The position numbers were made by a program, and so were the translations under genes. This document shows positions 47,371 through 60,318 of a stretch of 64,000 bases of DNA, piece by piece (position 1 is the first letter of the stretch; each line of letters starts with the position of its first letter). Under the pieces are notes generated by a model. It was not told the origin of the DNA. It searched no databases and was given only the letters and a program-made list of their open reading frames with translations. The stretch is from Octopus sinensis (taxonomy: Eukaryota). Location: NCBI RefSeq assembly GCF_006345805.1, contig NC_043018.1, positions 3,410,001 through 3,474,000 of the forward strand, read 5' to 3'.

Positions 47371-47895
47371 CAGGCATACATACATACATACATACATACA
47401 TACATACATACATACATACATACATACATACATACATACATAGATGCATACAAGAAATAGCCTGTTGTTGATGTTGAAATTCCAATGAAGGAGACTTGGT
47501 TTTGTTTTTTGTATACATCGCCGTAACTTAGCAGGTCGGCAAAAGAGACCGCTAGAACAAGTGCCAGGCTTCAAATGAAAACGAAAACAAGTACTGAGGC
47601 CGATTCATTCGACTAAAAATTCTTCAAGGCAGTGCCCCAGCTTGGCCGCAGTCTAATGACTCAAACAAGTAAAAGAGGAACTATATAAATAAGTGATGGG
47701 AAGCACAAGAGACAACCCCCAAAACACTAATGAGGTAAATCAATATTGTTACGCAATTCCCTCAAAGGATTGTGTAATCTTGTCAGTTGATTTCCTGAAA
47801 CACGTATCTATTTATTAATACTATGTAGATATTTATATATGTACCAGGTGCGCGTGAATGTGTATAATGAGTGTGTTGTTTAATTAGTTACCTAC

Positions 47896-48295
47896 CTATA
47901 GTGGACACAATAGTCACAGCAAAAAGAAGAGCTCCTGGTAGAGACCATGATAAAGAACTTCCACCGGGTAAACCTTTGGTGTCGCAATCCTCTCCTGTGT
48001 AACCAATATTCATAGCACTGTCGCGAAAAATCTTCAAAATCTGCTCGATCTCCGATTTCTTCGACGGACTGTTACTTTCAATTGCTAATAATTTTTCCAG
48101 AGTCTTGCTTTCCACTGAAGTGTATTCTTTAAAAGAATCCCTGCAGCTTTTAATTTCGTTTTCCCTCTCAAGATGTTCGAAGATAAACGCCCCTGCCACG
48201 CAGTAAGCAATTACCATTCCAAAGAGTCCAATATGAGAGAAGAGAAACTTCATAGCAGACTTGACACATGCTGATTTTTCTTTGCTTTGAGACAT
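47896..48295 (-). CDS. K2P two-pore-domain potassium channel (TRESK/KCNK18/TWK-like), coding exon 1: M1, cap, P1 helix
   Basis: ATG at 48295; M1 FLFSHIGLFGMVIAYCVAGAFIFEHLE; pore helix WSLPGALLFAVTIVSTI-G; donor ATAG|GTAGGT at 47896/47895, phase 1. Confidence 0.93.
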
Positions 48296-49110
48296 GCTTC
48301 CCGCTAATTTCTTGCACTCAGTAAATACATGTAATATTCTACACTAAGTATATGTAATTAAATACACGCATATGTATCGATCTATACAACATGCGTGCTT
48401 GCGTAGCTATGTATATGCATTCATGTGTATTATGTAACTTAATATGCATTAGTACATATATAAATGCCTGTCTCTGTATGTGTGCATATATTATAATATT
48501 TTGTAATATATTATAATATTTTATAATATTATATATTTATGAACTTGTGGACTTTCCAACCAATATTCTTTATGTGTTTGGTTGCGGCGTCAGAGTATAT
48601 TTGTGTTCGTGTCTTTATAACTACAGTAATTTCTTCGAAAAGCGTATTTTACTTCAAATTACGTATCTCTGCGTCCACTTAAGCTTAGTATCTCTCATTA
48701 AGAAATTTAAAAGGCTCCACTTTTGGTTCCCTTTTTCTTTCTTTTTGTCGGTTTTCGTTTGGATCCTCTTAATACTTTTGGAACAATCCAGGATTATTTA
48801 GAAGAGTTAATCGTTGCTTCTTCTAGTTTTTATCACGAAGTTTCTGTAGATAAAGCGTTAGCCCTGTTCAACGGATGAGATCTGTGACAAATATAAAAAA
48901 AGAAAAGAAATATATATATATATATTTAAAGGTGTGTGTGTATAAGAAGTATGACAGAAAATTTCATAAAATGTACCGTACTTTGGGCGAGTGCCGTCTG
49001 CTATGGCCTCGAGCTTTTGATTGCGTGGGAGCCAGTCCTATGTATAAGTGTGTGTATGAGTGTGTGGGCCTGTATTCTTGTGTGCAAGTTCGTGTGTTTC
49101 AGTGTAATTC

Positions 49111-49673: not shown

Positions 49674-50135
49674 CTTTGCCAACAACCATTAAATCAGATA
49701 ACTACAAATCCGAAGAGCCATATTTTTATTTTTTTATTTTTCCTGGGCCCTAGGTCTCCAAAGAACAACTACTAGGTTTCCATGGCGTATAAGTAATCGA
49801 GATCACAATGTTTCCCTCAATGGGACTCCGGTCGGTTGCGGTGTTTAAGGCTAGAGAATTTGAGAGGAGAGATAAGTCGACTACATCGTACTTAACGGGT
49901 ACTTTATTTTCTCGACAGCCAAAGGATGTCAGACAACTTTGACCTCGGCGCGGTTTGAACACGGAACGTAAAGAGGCGTAAGAAATGCTGCCAAACAATT
50001 TGTCCGAAATGCTAACAATTTTGTCTATATACATGCATACATACATACATTCATACATACATACATACATACATACATACATACATACATACATACATAC
50101 ATACATGCATACATACATACACATACATTCATACA

Positions 50136-50169
<34 letters not shown>

Positions 50170-50223
50170 CATACATACATACATACATACATACATACAT
50201 ACATACATACATACATACATACA

Positions 50224-50828
50224 TGGTGGTTGTCTACTCCTTATACAGAGTTTGACCACCTCCTGTACCTACACCTTAGCACCATCATGGCTCTTCTGAT
50301 GTGGCTTTTTAAACCAGACAATGTTCTGAAAAGACACCCACATAGATTGCACCTCTGATTTGGACCACTAATACCTGCAGATAAATTCTGCTCTTTGTGG
50401 ATCTTAAAATGTCTTTTGAGGCCTCTGTTGGATTTGCAAACCTTCTGGCATACACTGCATTCAAAGGTGTGCACAAACAAATAGTCAGAATAGTTGGTGG
50501 AGGTTTGTTTCCATGCGTTCGCAGGTGAGATTCGAGGCCAGCCAAAGACAGGCATGGCCTGTCACAGACTGTGCACACAGAAAAGTAATTGTCATTTACC
50601 TTCTCCATCGTTACATTCCTCCATAGATCTCTTTTGAGTCTTACTTGCGCTATTCTGGCCTCTTCAAATGCTTTTACTCCACTCCACACCTTTGTTCGCC
50701 ATCCAACTCGATCCGAAGCTAGGGTTCCTATATCTTCTGGAACCATAGTAGTCCTTATGCCGTCCTTAAGCCTTTTTTTTTAGGTTTACGCCGATAGCGT
50801 TTCCCCTCTGCAAGTTCACCATAAAACA
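50224..50828 (-). mobile_element. RTE-clade LINE 3' end with three C2H2 zinc fingers
   Basis: YGELAEGKR, LASDRVGWR, CTVCDRPCLSLAGLESHLRTH, CSVCQKVCKSNRGLKRHFKIH, CNLCGCLFRTLSGLKSHIRR; frameshifted. Confidence 0.78.
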
Positions 50829-50846
50829 TGCATACATACATACATA

Positions 50847-51010
50847 GTTTATGGTGAATTAATGCGGAACCTACAGCTCTTGTACCCTAACCATAATTTC
50901 TCAGTTGTACCTATCGTCAAAGGTGCATTAGGTTATGTACTAACAAATTTGCGCAAAAAAAACTAGAAATATTCGGTTTCACTGAGAAAGAGCAAAAAAA
51001 ACTGACACGG
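50847..51010 (+). mobile_element. Second R4/Dong-like 3' remnant following (TACA)n
   Basis: YGELMRNLQLLYPNHNFSVVPIVKGALGYV, homologous to 47070-47150. Confidence 0.68.
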
Positions 51011-52456
51011 ATTAAATCCAATCCATTAGTGACAAAGTGATTCTTTCTAAGATAATCCCCAAATTCTCTATTTGAGGTTCTTATGTGAAAAGATTCACAT
51101 AGTTGGGTGTATGCATCGACAGGTGAACCAGCGCATCAACTCAACCACACATTTACAGACACCGAGAACTCTCTTAACTCAAAAGGTCTTGTTTTTTTAA
51201 TGACCAGCTTGAACTCTCGAGGAGAACTTGTATAAAACTCAAAGAACAATTTTACGTACAACTATTCACCCATACATTCACTCACACATATGACTCGCTC
51301 GGATTTATTCCGTTGTCTCTCTCTCTCACCTGGTACACCTGTTTAGAACTGCGTATTTTTCTTATAACCATTTGATAGTAAAATTATACGGCTTATAAGC
51401 TACACATCCACTCACGCGTAGAAATGTTCAGTTATGTGTAAGATACATTCAATTATTTTCCTAATTAGGAAATTTGACCATGGACTCCAAAAGCAGATTG
51501 AAAACTGCTTTACTTTAATTTTATGTATGAGCCTACGTATATATGTACATGTGTTTATTTATATATATATGCATACACATGAGAGTGGCTGTGGCGTAGG
51601 AAGCTTCTTTCCCAACCACGATTCAGGGATCCCGGGTTCAATCCTACTGCATGACACCAAGGGCGAGTGGTTTTCTACTATAGTTTCGAGTCGACCAAAG
51701 ACTTGTGAGTGAATTTGGTAGACGGAAACTGAAAGAAGCCTGTCGTATATATATGTATATATTTATTTCTGTGTGTGTGTGTGCCTGTGTTTTTCCCACC
51801 CACTCCATCACCACTTTACAACAAGTGTTGGTTTGTTTACGTTCCCGTAATTAGCAGTTCGCCAAAAGAAACCGTTAGAATAAGTAGCACGCTCAAGAAA
51901 TAAGTACTGGGGCGATTCATTCGACCAAAAATTCAAGTCGGTGCCCCAGTATGGTCCCAGTATAGTGACTAAAACAAGTAAAAGATTATATATATATATA
52001 TATATATATATGTATAATCTTTTGCATGCTTTAGTCACTGGACTGAAGCGATGCTGAAGTATTGACTTGAAGTGTTTGTTTGAACAAATCGACCCCCAGA
52101 ACATATTTTTAAACCTGGTATTTATTCTATTAGTCCATTTTACTGAACCACTAGATTTAGGGGTGCGTAATCAAACCAACACCGATTTTCAAGCGAAGGC
52201 GGGAGACAAACACAAAAACGCTCCACTCGGAAATACATGTACTCAGAAATCAACTCATAAGGCTTTGTATAGACGTAGGCTGCAGTAGAAGACACTTGAC
52301 CAATATGCTACGCAATGTAGCTGGACCCGAAACCATGTGGAGGACAAGCAAGCTGCTTACCACACACACATACACACAGAGGCAGATTAGATAGATAGAT
52401 AGATAGATAGGTAGATAGATAGATAGATAGATAGATAGACAGATAGACAGATAGAC

Positions 52457-52522
<66 letters not shown>

Positions 52523-52666
52523 GCAATTATGCGGATAAACAAATCAACATAACAGCTTGGGGTTGACATACTATATATATATATATATATATATATGTAT
52601 AAAAAATATATATAAAAATACAAAATTGGACAAGAACGCAAAACATTCAAATAGATGACACAAAAT

Positions 52667-52702
<36 letters not shown>

Positions 52703-53359
52703 AGAAAGAAATCAAAGACTGAAGATTTTCAGACGATGAACATTTAAATGTAAATGCATTAGATATCGATATATTAATAGATCAAGCTTACACGGAGCTC
52801 AATCGACAGAGAAAATTAAAAGGGGAGAAGGTAATGTGTAACAGCTGTTGCAGGGGACTCGGACATCCAATATGATATTTGTAGATGTAGGTCACCAAAA
52901 TATGCAGCCACTAATCGAAGCAAAAAAAAATTGGATAAATCGAGCCTCTTCCGTCTTCAGTGTAGAAAAAAATCTTACATTGCACATCATGATGCAGAGA
53001 AGTAGGAAGTTCGATCCTCCTACCTCCTCCCTCCAATACCGCTTGCTTTCTGCAGCTAAACATTCCATCAGTTGACGTATATATATATATATATATACAT
53101 ATACTTCCCTACGTGGTTTGTTTTCAGGTGCTTTGGTTTTTCTGGGAACTCCCTTTAAAGTAGAAAGAATAGCTAGGATTTTGACTGCTATTTCTAAACT
53201 TCGGTGTGTGGTGAAGCTAATCGTTGCTGAACCCTAATTATATAGTATTACTTAAACTTACCATAAAATGGTCTTTTTTCATGCCGAATTCTACTTGGTG
53301 AAATTACTAATTACTTCTTAATTAATTAATTTCACCCTTTGTTATTACTGATATATATA

Positions 53360-53422
<63 letters not shown>

Positions 53423-53439
53423 TATCTTTACGAAGAGCT

Positions 53440-55330
53440 TCACATACCTTGTTCCCAAACCTTTATATCTACGATTAGCGAAAGGAAAGTGTGGACCAAG
53501 CAGGAGGATCAGGAAAGTGAAGCAGTTGAGGAGTGAAAAGAACAGCTTAAGAAAGCAATGGAAATGTACTGAGGAAGACAAAAGAAGACTTGGCCTCGGG
53601 CGACTGTACGAAGATTTAAAAAGGAAATACTGTTGTGTGCAACGAAAGGGAAGCAAAAGAGCTCGTGAACAGTTTCTGATGAACCCGTACGGGGTTGCTA
53701 AGAAGCTGTTCACTGAACCGAATTGCAGCCCTTTATCATGCACAAAAGAAGAACTGGAATGCTCATATCAAAGAAGCATACATTGATCCAAACCGTAACC
53801 AGCCACTGCCTCCTATAAATTGGCTAAAGCATCTCTTAGAACTTGATATCGAATTTCAAATTGGGGACATCAGGGAGAAAGAGGTGAATGATGATTTCGT
53901 GAGAAAGGTTAGAGCAAAGAGTGCCCAAGGAGGTGATGGCGTCTCGTATAAAATATATAATTACTGCATTCGTCTACGAAAGAAGCTCTTTGTCCTGCTC
54001 TGACAGCTGTGGCACGAAGATACTCTAGTAGAGGATTGGTGTAAGGCAGAAAGCATATACCTGCCGAAGGAGGCCAATGCAGGGATTATAAAACAGTTTA
54101 GGCCGATAACCTAATTGAATGTGGAAGGCAAGATCTTTATGGGAATTCTCTCAAGAGCAAAGGCATATCTTCAGGGTAATGGATAGTTTGATAAATCGGT
54201 TCAAAAGGCCGGAATTTCTGGGATCCCTGGATGCGTTGAGTATTGTTTTTCGATTTGGAAAGCGATCCAGGATGCCAAACAGAACAAGACAAGCCTGAAC
54301 GTGGTATGGCTTGATCTAGCTTATACATATGGCTCAGTTCCACACGAATTACTAATAAGAGCCAAGGACCACTTCCACATTCCAGACAAAGTAATGAGAT
54401 TAATGAGGATATATTAGGACAGTTTCGTTTATCCGATGATGTCTTGACATCGCCTACGAATCTAATAAGACGGAACGTCTAAGAAAATGATATATGCAAA
54501 TGCAAAAATGTCGGAACACTGAAACATATTCTTTCCAACTATTCACTGGCATTGAATAGATATACATGGATACACAATCTGGTCCTTAAGGTTATCGTCA
54601 AAGAACCAAATTGCTCTCATCAACAGTGGAACAAAAACCGTTGAAAGAACTAACCAGAGGTTTCTTTACCTTCGTGCATTCAGGACAGCAGATCCGTTTC
54701 AAGAAGAACTTTCCTGTGAGCGACGAAATGTGGAACGGGTATTGGGAAGTAGCTACAGATTTACCAGGATGCCAAAGATTCTTTGTCATCCCAGTTATGA
54801 AAAAAAACCCAGACATTTTAATGTGGTGTGAAAGAAAGAAAGTGGTGGATCTAGCTGAGTTGATGGTTCCACATGAATATAACATGGGCGCCGCTCGGGC
54901 TCGAAAGATTGACTGTTATGTAAACCTCCTCGAGGAATGTGAAGACGCAGGCTGGAAAGCGGAGCATTTTCCAATCGAAGTCGATTATAGAGGATTCGTT
55001 GGACACAGTGTGAGGTGACTGTTGTTATCGTTAGGCCTAACTCATCTTACAGTAAATGCCACCATGAGCGATATCCAAACTACAGCGGAAAATGCTAACC
55101 AATGGATGTTGTTAAAAAGAGACGATGAGCGATAGCTAGAAGAATATTGAGCTATATTTGATCTAGCAAGCGGGGCCTCATGTCACTGAGGAGGAACAGT
55201 ACGCAATGACGCTGTCGAGACGTAGGCCCCGAAACGGCACACATTTTCTCCTGAGGACCCTATGCACTTGCTAGATTCCGGTATGCTGAGCCAACAACAG
55301 TTACTATTATGTTGAGAGCTCCAGTAGGTT
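53440..55330 (+). mobile_element. HERO-like (R2-superfamily, RLE) non-LTR retrotransposon, internally deleted
   Basis: FLMNPYG.AKKLF, RAKSAQGGDGVSYK, QFRPIT, WLDLAY.YGSVPH, zinc-knuckle remnant GTLKHILS, PDILMW..AELMVPHE..FPIEV.YRGFVG. Confidence 0.82.
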
Positions 55331-55757
55331 TCCATACGGATGAACACAGGTTTCATACAATAGTTCCTACGCGCGTTTCACCATTATGGTTGCTCTGGAG
55401 GCGATCCAAAATTAATTAAATTCAAAGCGAACTAAGGAAGATATTTCTCAAAACGTTGTGTTCACTTGTATTTTCGGAAATATTAATTTCTTTATCTAAA
55501 TATGTTGACACAACATCTTCAGTTGTTGGCTTTGTAAGAGGAATTCTAAAATTAAAGATGCGATTTTTCTCTATCTACATTTTTTGTTGTCTAATACTCG
55601 AAATTGTTGTCTAATTTCTCGAATTCTTGTAAATGATATTTGGTCCCACTTGTCATACACGAGGAATAGCCTTGGATGTGTTTTCTACTTGCATTTATTA
55701 GAGTTTGGTTGTTTGTTACAGTTAAGTAAAATCGTTTATATATATATATATATATAT

Positions 55758-56168
55758 AGGAGTGGCTGTGTGGTAAGTAGCTTGTTTACCAACCACGGGT
55801 TCAGTCCCACTACGTGGCACCTTGGGCAAGTGTCTTCTACTATAGCCTCGGGCCGACCAAAGTCTTGTGAGTGGATTTGGTAGACGGAAACTGAAAGAAG
55901 CCCGTCGTATATATGTATATATATATATATTATATATATATATATTATATATATATATATATATATGCGTGTGTGTGTTTGTGTGTCTGTGTTTGTCCCC
56001 CTAGCATTGCTTGACAACCGATGCTGGTGTGTTTATGTCCCCGTTACTTAGCAGTAATAAGTACTGGGCTTACAAAAGAATAAGTCCCGGGGTCGAGTTG
56101 CTCGATTAAAGGCGGTGCTCCAGCATGGCCGCAGTCAAATGACTGAAACAAGTAAAAGAGTAAAGAGT
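55758..56168 (+). mobile_element. SINE family B
   Basis: Homologous to 11835-12295. Confidence 0.88.
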
Positions 56169-56169
56169 A

Positions 56170-56241
<72 letters not shown>

Positions 56242-56306
56242 ATAGAGAGAGAGAGGAGAGAGAGAAAGAGGGAGAGAGGGGGAGAGACAGACATGCATGT
56301 GTTGTA

Positions 56307-56750
56307 CAAGGGGGTACCCAAAATTAACCAGAAACGTTCTCTGTGAGACAAGCCCGTTGCAGTTCAGGCTTCTACCCCTAGAAGCCACTTGAGGCGATCC
56401 TCAGGCATCAATCTGCTGACCGGCGTCGGCCACTAAACTCGTACTGCCACCTGGTGTGTCTTTGTTTTGCAGTGTTTCTCCCTTGTTTGTCGATTTTTGC
56501 GATGGTTTAAGCGAAGGAACCGCGTGCTTCCGTGAAATTCTGTTTTCTGCTGGAAAAACGGCGGCCGAAAAAGGTCTCATGTTTCAAACATATTACAAAG
56601 ACGCTGCCACGATCAAAACACAAGTTTATGAGTGGTTTCCACGCTTTAGAAAGGATCACTTGTCGTTGGGGACCAACTTTATTCAGGGTAGCTGTCGACC
56701 TCCGGAACGAATGAAAACATGAATATTCATGAACTTGGAAAACATTGTAC
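56307..56750 (+). mobile_element. mariner remnant (TIR plus HTH)
   Basis: TA|CAAGGGGGTACCCAAAA TIR; KFCF.L, GKTAAE, YKDAATIKTQVYEWFPRFRK. Confidence 0.75.
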
Positions 56751-56873
56751 ATGGCTGCTTATATCAATTTTTATGTACACATCAGCTATTCGCTAAATCA
56801 TCCATAAATTTGTATGCTAAATACATATATGCTGACAGTGGATTAAGCCCGGAAAAAGCCGAACGAGCGGTCC

Positions 56874-56915
56874 CTGCTGAATAGGCTACGGAAATAGCCG
56901 AAAATGAACGTCCAG
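56874..56915 (+). ncRNA. Degenerate hammerhead motif
   Basis: CTG-CTGAATA-GGCTA cggaaa TAGCC-GAAA-ATGAAC-GTC-CAG; G8 replaced by U. Confidence 0.5.
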
Positions 56916-57104
56916 TTTAGAGAATTCTAGAGTCGGTGTTTCTGAGCGATTTCAGCCCCTGTGAGCATGCATGTATACAATTATGTGATTCTACTACAGC
57001 ATTAGAGCATTTTAGTTCTTATTTCTAGCAATGTAGATGTCTTAACACCTTTCGTCGCATTTAGAGACAATTATAGCAGTTTACATTAATTTATATATTA
57101 GCAT

Positions 57105-57505
57105 CTCTCTCTATCCGCTCAGTCGAAGTCGACTCTCGGTCACTCGATGGATCAGTGTCCTCCAGTCAGTTCTATCCTGGGTCGCTTCTTTCAGATTGGC
57201 CATGTCCATTCCGGTATCACTCTTGATGGTGTCAAGCCAGCGGGTTCTTGGTCGGCCTCTTCCTCTCTTGCCACTGACCATTCCGAGCATGATGTCCTTC
57301 TCCAGGGATTTTCTCCGCATAATATGACCAAAATATGCCAATCTATGCTTGGTGATACTAGCTTCTAGCGGCATTTTCGGCCTTATCTGCTTAAGAACTT
57401 CTCCATTGGTGAGCCTCGCTGTCCATGGAATCCGTAAAAGTCTTCTCCGACACCAAAGCTCGAATGCATTAATTCTCTTCTGCGTACGTGCTTCAGTGTA
57501 ACTAT
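57105..57505 (-). mobile_element. RTE/BovB-like LINE 3' end, 5'-truncated, frame intact
   Basis: RINAFELWCRRRLLRIPWTAR..YFGHIMRR.SLEKDIMLG..GKRGRGRPRTRWLD. Confidence 0.88.
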
Positions 57506-58040
57506 GGGATGAAGAGGTGCAATGTGACTTGTCCACGATGTCTAAAACAAACTAAATTATAAAAACACTCACACACACACACACATACACGGACGGAAAG
57601 GGACAACCCGATGACAAACCAAGCTTAGTTGTATGCTCGCTTACCAAAATTTGAAATTACACCTATGGATCTCAAACTGAATATCACTTAGCTCTTGCCC
57701 AATTATTTATAGAATTATTTTGTTCCCTAATCTCCTTCATTACTGAGATCCCAAAACTGAGTTTATCCTTATGTAACACTTCTTATTCATCGTGATTTTG
57801 GAGAAGTTTAACAAGCTTTAAACCCATTTTAATTTCATTAATCTTAATAGATAGTGCATTACACCACGTGATGCTATAGCACTATTATCCAATGAGCATC
57901 AATGGAGTAAAGTCCGTTATTCTCTCAATATATATGTAGATATATTTATATAAACATTTATCAAATGTACGTATGAAATTATGTATTCTTTATGCACATA
58001 TTTATCTGTATATATATATATCTGTATGTATGTATGTATG

Positions 58041-58079
<39 letters not shown>

Positions 58080-58190
58080 ATATATATGCCTGATGTAATC
58101 ATATCCATGCGCATAATGTGTGTGAGAGAGAGAGTGTAAGTGAATGCGCATATGTGTTTGTGTGTGTTTGTGCTCGTGTGTGTGTGTGTG

Positions 58191-58266
<76 letters not shown>

Positions 58267-58595
58267 AAGTGAGTTATAAATATATAGAGAGATATAGATA
58301 TACAGATATATATATACGCTTAGTGGTATTCCGGTAAATATATACAACACGGTCGTGTATATATAATCGTACAACAATGCAGTCGTAACAATTCCCCCGG
58401 GGTGTTTATTCTTTGTGATGCATGAGAAGATACAGCACAACTGTGTCACGACTCCATGATAATCTTATACACACATAAACCGTGTATGTACTGTTAATGT
58501 CAAAGACACAAGGAACTCGATAAGACTGTTCAACGCTATTGTTCTATTGATCTGAAAGATGGCGTCTTGCTCTTCAAATGGTGATTGTGGCATCG

Positions 58596-58712
58596 GTGGT
58601 GGTGGTGGTGGTGGTGGTGGTGGTGATTGTGGTGGTGGTGGTGGTGGTGGTGGTGGTGGTGGTGGTGGTGGTATTGGTGGTGGTATGGTGGTGGTGGTGG
58701 TGGTGGCGGCGG
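58596..58712. repeat. (GGT)n trinucleotide repeat
   Basis: Read directly. Confidence 0.95.
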
Positions 58713-59438
58713 ATGAGGTGTTGGTGGTGTGTCCGTTGATAATTATGTTGATTTCATAAGTGTTTGTTTTTATGAACATTTCGTGGTATTGCTTTTGTTT
58801 TGTGTGTTTGTCCTGCGTTCGATTACCCTGTCTCCGATTACGTGGAATATCCCAGGTTGATTGGAAAATGTCACATTTAATCATCGCATCTCCATTACTT
58901 CTTCCGGTTAATACTTGTCAGCGTGTACACACGAGAACCAAAGTGGGAACAGCTAATCTAGGTTATCTCTCCATTTAGGAGAAACAGTAGCCAAATCTTC
59001 TTCAAATAACAACACCCTTTGGATCAAACCGTATCAGTCCCAGCGGATTTCTCACGTAAACATGATTAGGTGACTGATGTTCTGGCTTGCCAGCTGGGCG
59101 GTTGGTTACTTGGTTGGCTGACTTGCTGGTCGGTTGGTTGGTTGGCTTGCTGGCTGGTTGGCTGGTTGGCTGGTTAGCTGACTGAGTGGCTCGATGGATT
59201 AATGGTTGGATGGATGGGTGGATGGATGAATGGATGGATGGTGTATGTGTCTATAAGACTAGCGCTGAATATGCATGCATACACATACAACCGTACGTAG
59301 ATACATACATGTACATGCATACGTACACACTCATACATAGATGTTCGTAGAGAATTTATGAATAAAACACAAAAGACGAAGACGGGTGTGTAAACAACAA
59401 ACACATGTATTAGTTTAACGCTCGGGAAGTGAGAAAGT

Positions 59439-59474
59439 CTTTTACGTTTCGAGCCTACGCTCTTCAACAGAAAG
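59439..59474 (-). ncRNA. Hammerhead motif with core variant CTGTTGA
   Basis: CTTT-CTGTTGA-AGAGC gtag GCTC-GAAAC-GTA-AAAG, inside element 59350-59535. Confidence 0.7.
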
Positions 59475-60318
59475 GGACACAGAAATAAACAGGGAGAGAA
59501 AAATAGAAAAAGGTTTAGTAGCTAGCGATCTACCTATATTTATAGGATACGAAAAGACATGTATATGGGTACAAATTAATCTACACGCACACACACAATT
59601 GCATACAAACATGCACACATAGTACCCACACAACAACCAGTTCATCAAAACTCATGAGCTGTCCTTATTTATACAAAAGGAAAGGCAACATTTCTCAAGT
59701 GATTACAGGAAGAAGGAAAGAAAAAATTGCTTGTATCTATCTTCTGAAACATGGAGATGGTTTTGAAATTCCGTCAAATGAACATCTGAAAACAGCCCCA
59801 TCAGAAGCGTGAGGGAAAATAACCTGTTCTATACAATGGCGTATGGTAGTTGTTGTCACTGAGTATGCTGCTTCACTGACCATAGTATGACTTGCATTAG
59901 TATTACTAAAATTAGGCATACGAACTGTGTATTTCGATTCAAAATGCGGGATCCGAAATGTAAACGCAAAGTTTCTTTGAAAATTAAACACGAAACGATA
60001 ATACACGAAATAGTTTTTTTCACAAAATTATTTCTCCAAAATGAAATCATTCAAATTTAGGAAAAACTTCGCTTGGCATAATACAAGCTATAAAAACCTC
60101 ACGAAGGTTACGATTTAAGCTACGAAGCTCTTATATTTTGTTACTAATCAGTATATAATCACTGAAAATTAAATTAAAGGCGCGTATTTCTGTGACTATA
60201 AAAGCATTTAAGATCAATACTAATTAATTTTTTTAAATGCATAAGCACACAACTCAGAAAATCACAAATTTCACAGAGCAACCTTTCACAAATTTGTAGT
60301 GTTGGATTCCTCGTACCA

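Follow-up and report, generated by a model that had tools for sequence, protein, structure and literature searches.

The 3' untranslated region (UTR) of an abundant retrotransposon of Octopus sinensis encodes a fold that, on comparison with distant relatives, we regard as a real and deeply conserved variant of the hammerhead ribozyme, in which the 5' strand of stem II is detached from the conserved core and lies upstream of the cleavage site. We consider it likely that this RNA cleaves itself after GUC and that the cleaved product is rejoined into a unit-length circle, which would then serve as the template for insertion. The fold was recognised in a 64,000-nucleotide stretch of contig NC_043018.1 (hereafter the window), whose coordinates are used below.

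The motif belongs to a decayed, 5'-truncated copy of a non-LTR retrotransposon with a restriction-like endonuclease (RLE), which was delimited by BLAST at 53465..55291 (+) using a 3,737-nt unit from locus L122. The two sequences are about 80% identical in two pieces, the window copy having an internal deletion that corresponds to positions 1684-2799 of the unit, while its last 45 nt or so remain unmatched. The C-terminal part of the open reading frame (ORF), containing the PD-(D/E)xK restriction-like endonuclease region, occupies 54590..55150 (+) and is broken by stops; the family stop codon lies at 55148-55150, and the motif pieces directly follow the broken ORF, that is, in the 3' UTR. Young copies encode an N-terminal zinc finger, a reverse transcriptase (RT) domain (RVT_1, E 7e-19) and conserved C-terminal motifs, which we take to be the zinc knuckle and the PD-(D/E)xK endonuclease; this single ORF with RT followed by zinc knuckle and endonuclease is the layout of RLE non-LTR retrotransposons. 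The element is present in more than 1,000 copies in the genome, and the pattern GAAACGG-N4-14-CTGATGA matches at 1,141 places (578 + 563) versus 47 (30 + 17) for the reversed control, so that the succession of site, GAAA and CUGAnGA noted in the preliminary description exceeds chance. The 3' ends of copies cluster within ~8 nt and the 5' ends scatter; among 77 ends inspected, clear target-site duplications are seen in only a few, and copies terminate at ...GACAU plus 0-5 further matching bases, with no poly(A). Homologues with named hosts belong to Aplysia, Branchiostoma, Diadema and a fish; these host names, together with the lack of a fixed target, fit a HERO-like element.

Other features of the window include an exon-like frame at 47888-48343 (-), with no Pfam match, that reads like what we assume to be the pore segment of a two-pore potassium channel, and two fragments at 50241-50779 (-) and 57111-57551 (-) that look like C-termini of other LINEs, presumably RTE-like, for which Pfam gave no match above the cut-off. 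At 55760-55910 (+), (TA)n runs flank a short interspersed repeat, which we presume to be a cephalopod SINE.

Read 5' to 3', the fold has the order P1a - P2 hairpin - II5' - PKa - III3'-UH^I3' - II3'-GAAA-III5' - PKb - I5'-CUGAnGA - P1b, supported by covariation. In the window, where all parts are on the + strand, the 5' strand of P1 (55161..55175) is made up of an outer helix (55161-55170) and GGGG (55172-55175), and is paired with a 3' strand (55258..55276) starting directly after A9. The P2 hairpin (55176..55191), located between P1 and stem II, covaries in relatives and retains 5 of its 6 pairs here. It is followed by the detached 5' strand of stem II (55192..55197), which in the family starts with G10.1, and by the 5' strand of a pseudoknot (55199..55204) that makes up the stem I-stem II interaction by pairing with 55239..55244; in the decayed window copy three of six pairs are broken in each of these two helices, and G10.1:C11.1 is lost. 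The site block (55211..55221) comprises the 3' strand of stem III (55211-55215), C17 (55216) and the 3' strand of stem I (55217-55221), the predicted cut falling between 55216 and 55217. The G block (55225..55238) contains the 3' strand of stem II (55225-55230), GAAA (55231-55234) and the 5' strand of stem III (55234-55238), and the C block (55246..55257) contains the 5' strand of stem I (55246-55250) and CUGAGGA (55251-55257), which reads CUGAUGA in young copies. Judging from its sequence, the predicted ribozyme of the window's own copy is probably inactive.

All pieces had been correctly located in the preliminary description, namely GCTGT-C (55211-55216), GAGA (55217-55220), GAAA (55231-55234), CGGC (55235-55238), TCTC (55247-55250), CTGAGGA (55251-55257) and the closing helix 55161-55170/55267-55276, and it was also right in proposing that a short strand crosses directly from stem I to stem II. 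Its stem II was misplaced, as discussed below. Energy-based folding with ViennaRNA returned, for a young copy, a best structure retaining P1, P2 and 4 pairs of stem II, with stems I and III out of register, and for the window a best structure (z -2.66) in which the G-run of P1 is paired with the 3' strand of stem II. This last helix was considered as a candidate stem II and dropped, L171 and other relatives excluding the pairing. In three dimensions, we infer a four-way junction in which P2 stacks with P1, and the A9.G12 pair with stem II. Just 3' of P1, the closest relatives L171 and L172 share a small hairpin of the type UCCG-N4-GCGGA (window 55278-55287), partly lost in the window, which is a candidate part of an RT-binding signal.

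Self-cleavage of this 3' UTR hammerhead after GUC is likely, and the boundaries of genomic copies bear on it. Using a search pattern with three foreign bases directly before the cut, 8 genomic hits were obtained. In seven of them the boundary coincides with the cut to the nucleotide, six adjoining flank DNA and one an internal position of the element; the eighth is a mutated full copy. The six are insertions of ~120 nt in which the match starts exactly at the cut and is preceded by flank DNA. Control positions yielded 1 hit, an internal deletion (+5), no hit (-9), and 4 hits with, as judged from the listing, at most one possible boundary (+28). The counts are small: if the background is taken to be 1 per position, the probability of six or more such cases is ~6e-4, and if it is taken to be 2, 0.017. 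In two copies (L261 and L032), deletions end exactly at the cut. An assembly contig starting 1 nt from the cut was discarded as a trace of cleavage, since a CpG variant explains its start equally well. The earlier proposal that the cut defines the 3' end of the element RNA is contradicted by the inserted copies, which end ~120 nt downstream of it.

The distance from the cut to the end of the unit is 123 nt. The start of the 5' UTR occurs 38 times, and in all 30 cases examined it is preceded, through the same junction, by the element's own 3' end; full-length copies are headed by a repeat of the tail, which varies in length. Nine of these 30 share one boundary, leaving 22 independent cases, and a single junction-containing insertion has been multiplied at least 9 times by segmental duplication (L162-L170; G000:C18, 3.8-5.2 Mb). 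The 5' boundaries of the 22 scatter from -10 to -986, with 17 beyond the cut, 5 between the cut and the junction, and none at either the junction or the cut. That no copy starts at the junction excludes a linear RNA beginning there, and one that begins at the cut accounts for the short copies only. An element tail fused in front of full-length starts and running across the cut is what a circular template would give. Matching in excess of the modal 3' end indicates a template that extends to CUAA and no further, and this excess is therefore not taken as proof of a circle. Contigs from runs presumed to be RNA cover the unit and two of them bridge the head-to-tail junction, as do contigs of two other organisms, with the limit that ends, strand and circles are not resolvable from contigs. 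The same link is met in 8 of 44 relatives as an N-terminal zinc finger lying 336-421 nt after the ribozyme, in what are collapsed assemblies.

Seven non-coding derivatives of ~0.6-1.5 kb (L142, L143, L145, L149, L150, L151 and L160), each shortened by a different internal deletion, retain this terminal overlap and look like retrozyme-style parasites of the element. At locus L027 (1715-2075), a 160-nt segment containing the ribozyme's 5' half is present in three tandem copies, which stop after GAAA. At the other end of the element, the 5' UTR opens with a run of short hairpins bearing GGAAAGAC-type loops (L122, unit 25-125); this run is kept in the distant relatives L183, L207, L216, L218, L223 and L230, and its hairpins are candidate protein-binding sites.

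These data suggest a route in which cleavage, ligation, circles and promoter use are all inferred. The transcript of a copy longer than one unit, bearing two ribozymes, would be cut at both to release a 3.7-kb monomer, the two ends of which would be held together by pairing in P1, stem II, the pseudoknot and stem III. Such clamping would favour ligation, either by the ribozyme or by a host ligase, and hence a circle. The RT/RLE protein would prime internally near ...GACAU(CUAA), 120 nt from the 5' end of the monomer. On RNA left unjoined the RT would stop at the cut, giving 120-nt copies, while on joined RNA it would pass the seam and might go around more than once, regenerating copies with two ribozymes.

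An active ribozyme that never yields a covalent circle is the most serious alternative, which we nonetheless consider rather unlikely. The RNA would be either a linear monomer with ends held by P1, stem II, the pseudoknot and stem III, the RT jumping the nick, or, with a slow ribozyme, a mostly uncut tandem template that is read through. R2-type RTs are capable of template jumping, the existence of copies that stop at the cut shows the RNA to be used in a cut, unjoined state, and the deletions of L261 and L032 are such as imprecise jumping would produce. However, 365 copies show an exact seam over the cut; with read-through of uncut RNA as the sole route, the overlap would shrink at each generation, yet the link persists across the clade and in the deleted derivatives; and none of the copies examined comprised two full units. 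We therefore retain the circular template as the likely reading and turn to the fold itself.

Relatives of the element were retrieved by alignment of the endonuclease region and consisted of 79 metagenomic loci and 5 loci from prokaryote assemblies, the latter probably host contamination; none were found in viral contigs. Of the 81 loci parsed, 70 extended 150 nt or more beyond the ORF. With a strict parser, the core was detected in 40/81 loci and in none of the reverse complements (0/70), ORF stretches (0/70) or shuffles (0/1,400). With N16, N17 and 10.1 unconstrained, the fold was detected in 45/70, and again in no reverse complement (0/70) or ORF stretch (0/70). Protein identity between the hits and the window's family is 34-54%. 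As to the 25 relatives lacking a scoring motif, 8 appeared by eye decayed or cut off, 6 have another fold, and nothing was recognised in 11. In a protein tree constructed by a quick method, the subclade formed by L179, L180, L197 and L198 is nested among hammerhead-bearing elements and shows no hammerhead in its available 3' UTR sequence, a possible case of loss or replacement.

Letters were counted in 44 relatives plus one young copy, a non-redundant set of 45 rows in which CUGAnGA and GAAA served as search anchors. U16 is present in 45/45 rows; N17, which was not scored, is C in 18, U in 14, A in 13 and never G; N7 is free; and G10.1:C11.1 is found in 39/45, the others being G:U (n = 3) or different (n = 3). 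This pattern of invariant CUGAnGA, GAAA and U16, free N7, excluded G17 and preferred G10.1:C11.1 is that of hammerhead chemistry, and it speaks, along with copies that start at the exact predicted cut, against the fold being a non-catalytic, merely hammerhead-like binding site for the RT/RLE protein. That explanation, which we hold to be improbable, draws on the fact that over 99% of copies extend across the cut site and on the binding of template RNA by R2-type proteins at a comparable position.

Covariation was analysed in a MAFFT alignment of 39 rows, which omits 6 of the 44 non-redundant hits (L190, L191, L199, L225, L231 and L232) as near-duplicates, truncated or mis-registered. For the whole structure, 81% of cells are paired, versus 59% when shuffled and 30-45% when slid, and both-side changes number 250 versus 86. 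All six helices covary. In stems I, II and III, 97%, 93% and 92% of cells are paired, with both-side changes in 3/3, 3/4 and 4/5 pairs, respectively, so the pairings of stems I and III proposed at the outset extend to distant relatives. P1 and P2 are paired in 77-79% of cells, their columns being favoured by segment ends chosen by the parser. The pseudoknot is paired in only 50% of cells because its columns shift between sequences; per sequence, the parser recovers 5-6 of its 6 pairs. Taken together, the alignment places the true 5' strand of stem II in a separate strand upstream of the cleavage site, the strand directly after CUGAnGA forming P1.

The initial drawing had instead paired CGTAGG (55221-55226) with CCTATG (55259-55264) as stem II, and this lacks covariation support; what it took for a CCCC insert at the base of that stem is in fact the 3' strand of the true stem II, and young copies have both a C after A9 and a C before G12. 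We find it very hard to credit a standard type-SGC hammerhead of this kind, with stem II built from the strands adjoining CUGAnGA and GAAA, since the 6/6 pairs formed in the window copy are reduced to 4/6 in 52 of 63 genomic copies examined (6/6 in 1/63), the drawn, offset helix is paired in 38% of alignment cells, below the shuffled level, and the core-adjacent version in 46%, not above shuffles, with its core-adjacent pair in 2/39 rows (5/45 by parser).

With respect to known hammerheads, the motif has the core letters (CUGAnGA, GAAA, U16, H17) and covarying flanking stems of the class, and departs from types I, II and III, which have the orders CGS, GSC and SCG and no core pseudoknots. Its block order is S-G-C, outside these three types as first claimed, and a comparison of window 50000-60000 with Rfam (E up to 10) matched nothing over the motif, the same being true of the motif in 20 related loci (E up to 1). 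The idea of a pseudoknotted, non-circularly permuted hammerhead missed by standard searches is thereby upheld in all but the stem II drawn for it; descriptor searches miss the fold because they assume CUGAnGA to be joined to stem II. According to the available parts of Eckert et al. 2023 (PMC10085705), the hammerhead can be split into blocks S, G and C, each block being assumed uninterruptible; type SGC was validated from metatranscriptomes (HRIMA-1 and variants), and, in those parts, none is reported from known genomes except one bacterial GCS candidate. The order itself was thus already known, the S-G-C order here being that of the published type SGC. Our motif shares with that type, as described there, the order site-GAAA-CUGAnGA, the short linker from the stem I 3' strand to the stem II 3' strand, the core letters and a helix tying the free sides of stems I and II. 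In contrast, type SGC has an unbroken block C with stem II straight after A9, whereas in our motif the site has the stem II 5' strand and the interaction strand upstream of it, and A9 and G10.1 are parted by the entry of P1 and P2. The core is therefore best described as type-SGC-like and opened between A9 and G10.1. What is new is this break and the retrotransposon setting, not the S-G-C order. In the openly accessible literature searched, PMC11620745 among it, no description of such split-stem wiring was found.

Retroelements offer several parallels. Cervera and de la Pena 2014 (PMC4209133) put forward the same circular-template model for Penelope elements, whose hammerheads conserve an extra nucleotide at the A9-G10.1 link, which therefore tolerates insertion. 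Unlike our motif, hosted by an RT with a C-terminal restriction-like endonuclease, the hammerheads of Penelope-like elements have type-I topology and are minimal and often dimeric (PMC4209133). The HDV-like ribozymes at the 5' end of R2 (PMC13580325, PMC7650587) likewise process the RNA of an RLE-type non-LTR retrotransposon by self-cleavage, predicted in our case, but they are of another class and act at the 5' end on a linear template, whereas ours sits in the 3' UTR, with copies reading across the cut. The HERO clade resembles our element in its dispersed insertion and in having one ORF that comprises an N-terminal zinc finger, RT, zinc knuckle and RLE (PMC4640811, PMC10294476, PMC7650587); in the literature searched, including the available parts of these three papers, no ribozyme or circular template is described for HERO.

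A sister clade (L226, 4440-4540; L233, L235, L238, L240 and L242) has no hammerhead and displays another conserved fold at the same 3' UTR position. This consists of a long stem closing the loop GCA(A/U)G-NNN-UGCUCAA, the middle of which pairs downstream with covariation. Its loop resembles what we take to be the internal loop of twister-sister, Rfam gave no match in the four of six loci scanned, and the fold is possibly a second self-cleaving RNA in the same role. In its broadest form, the proposal is that an entire clade of LINEs of the RLE type replicates via circular RNA by means of a four-block hammerhead beyond the six permutations thought possible, with four helices clamping the monomer ends for self-ligation, and with the sister clade using another self-cleaving fold at the same place; we lean towards this proposal, with less assurance than for the octopus element.

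If true, the finding would mean that non-circular permutations of the hammerhead occur not only in uncharacterised RNAs from metatranscriptomes but at thousands of animal genome loci, and would break the assumption that CUGAnGA and stem II are inseparable. A ribozyme clamping its own cut ends may be useful for the production of circular RNA. For the retrotransposons themselves, the long-proposed circular-template route would become open to testing in a LINE of the RLE type for which the cut, the priming site and the unit length are all predicted.
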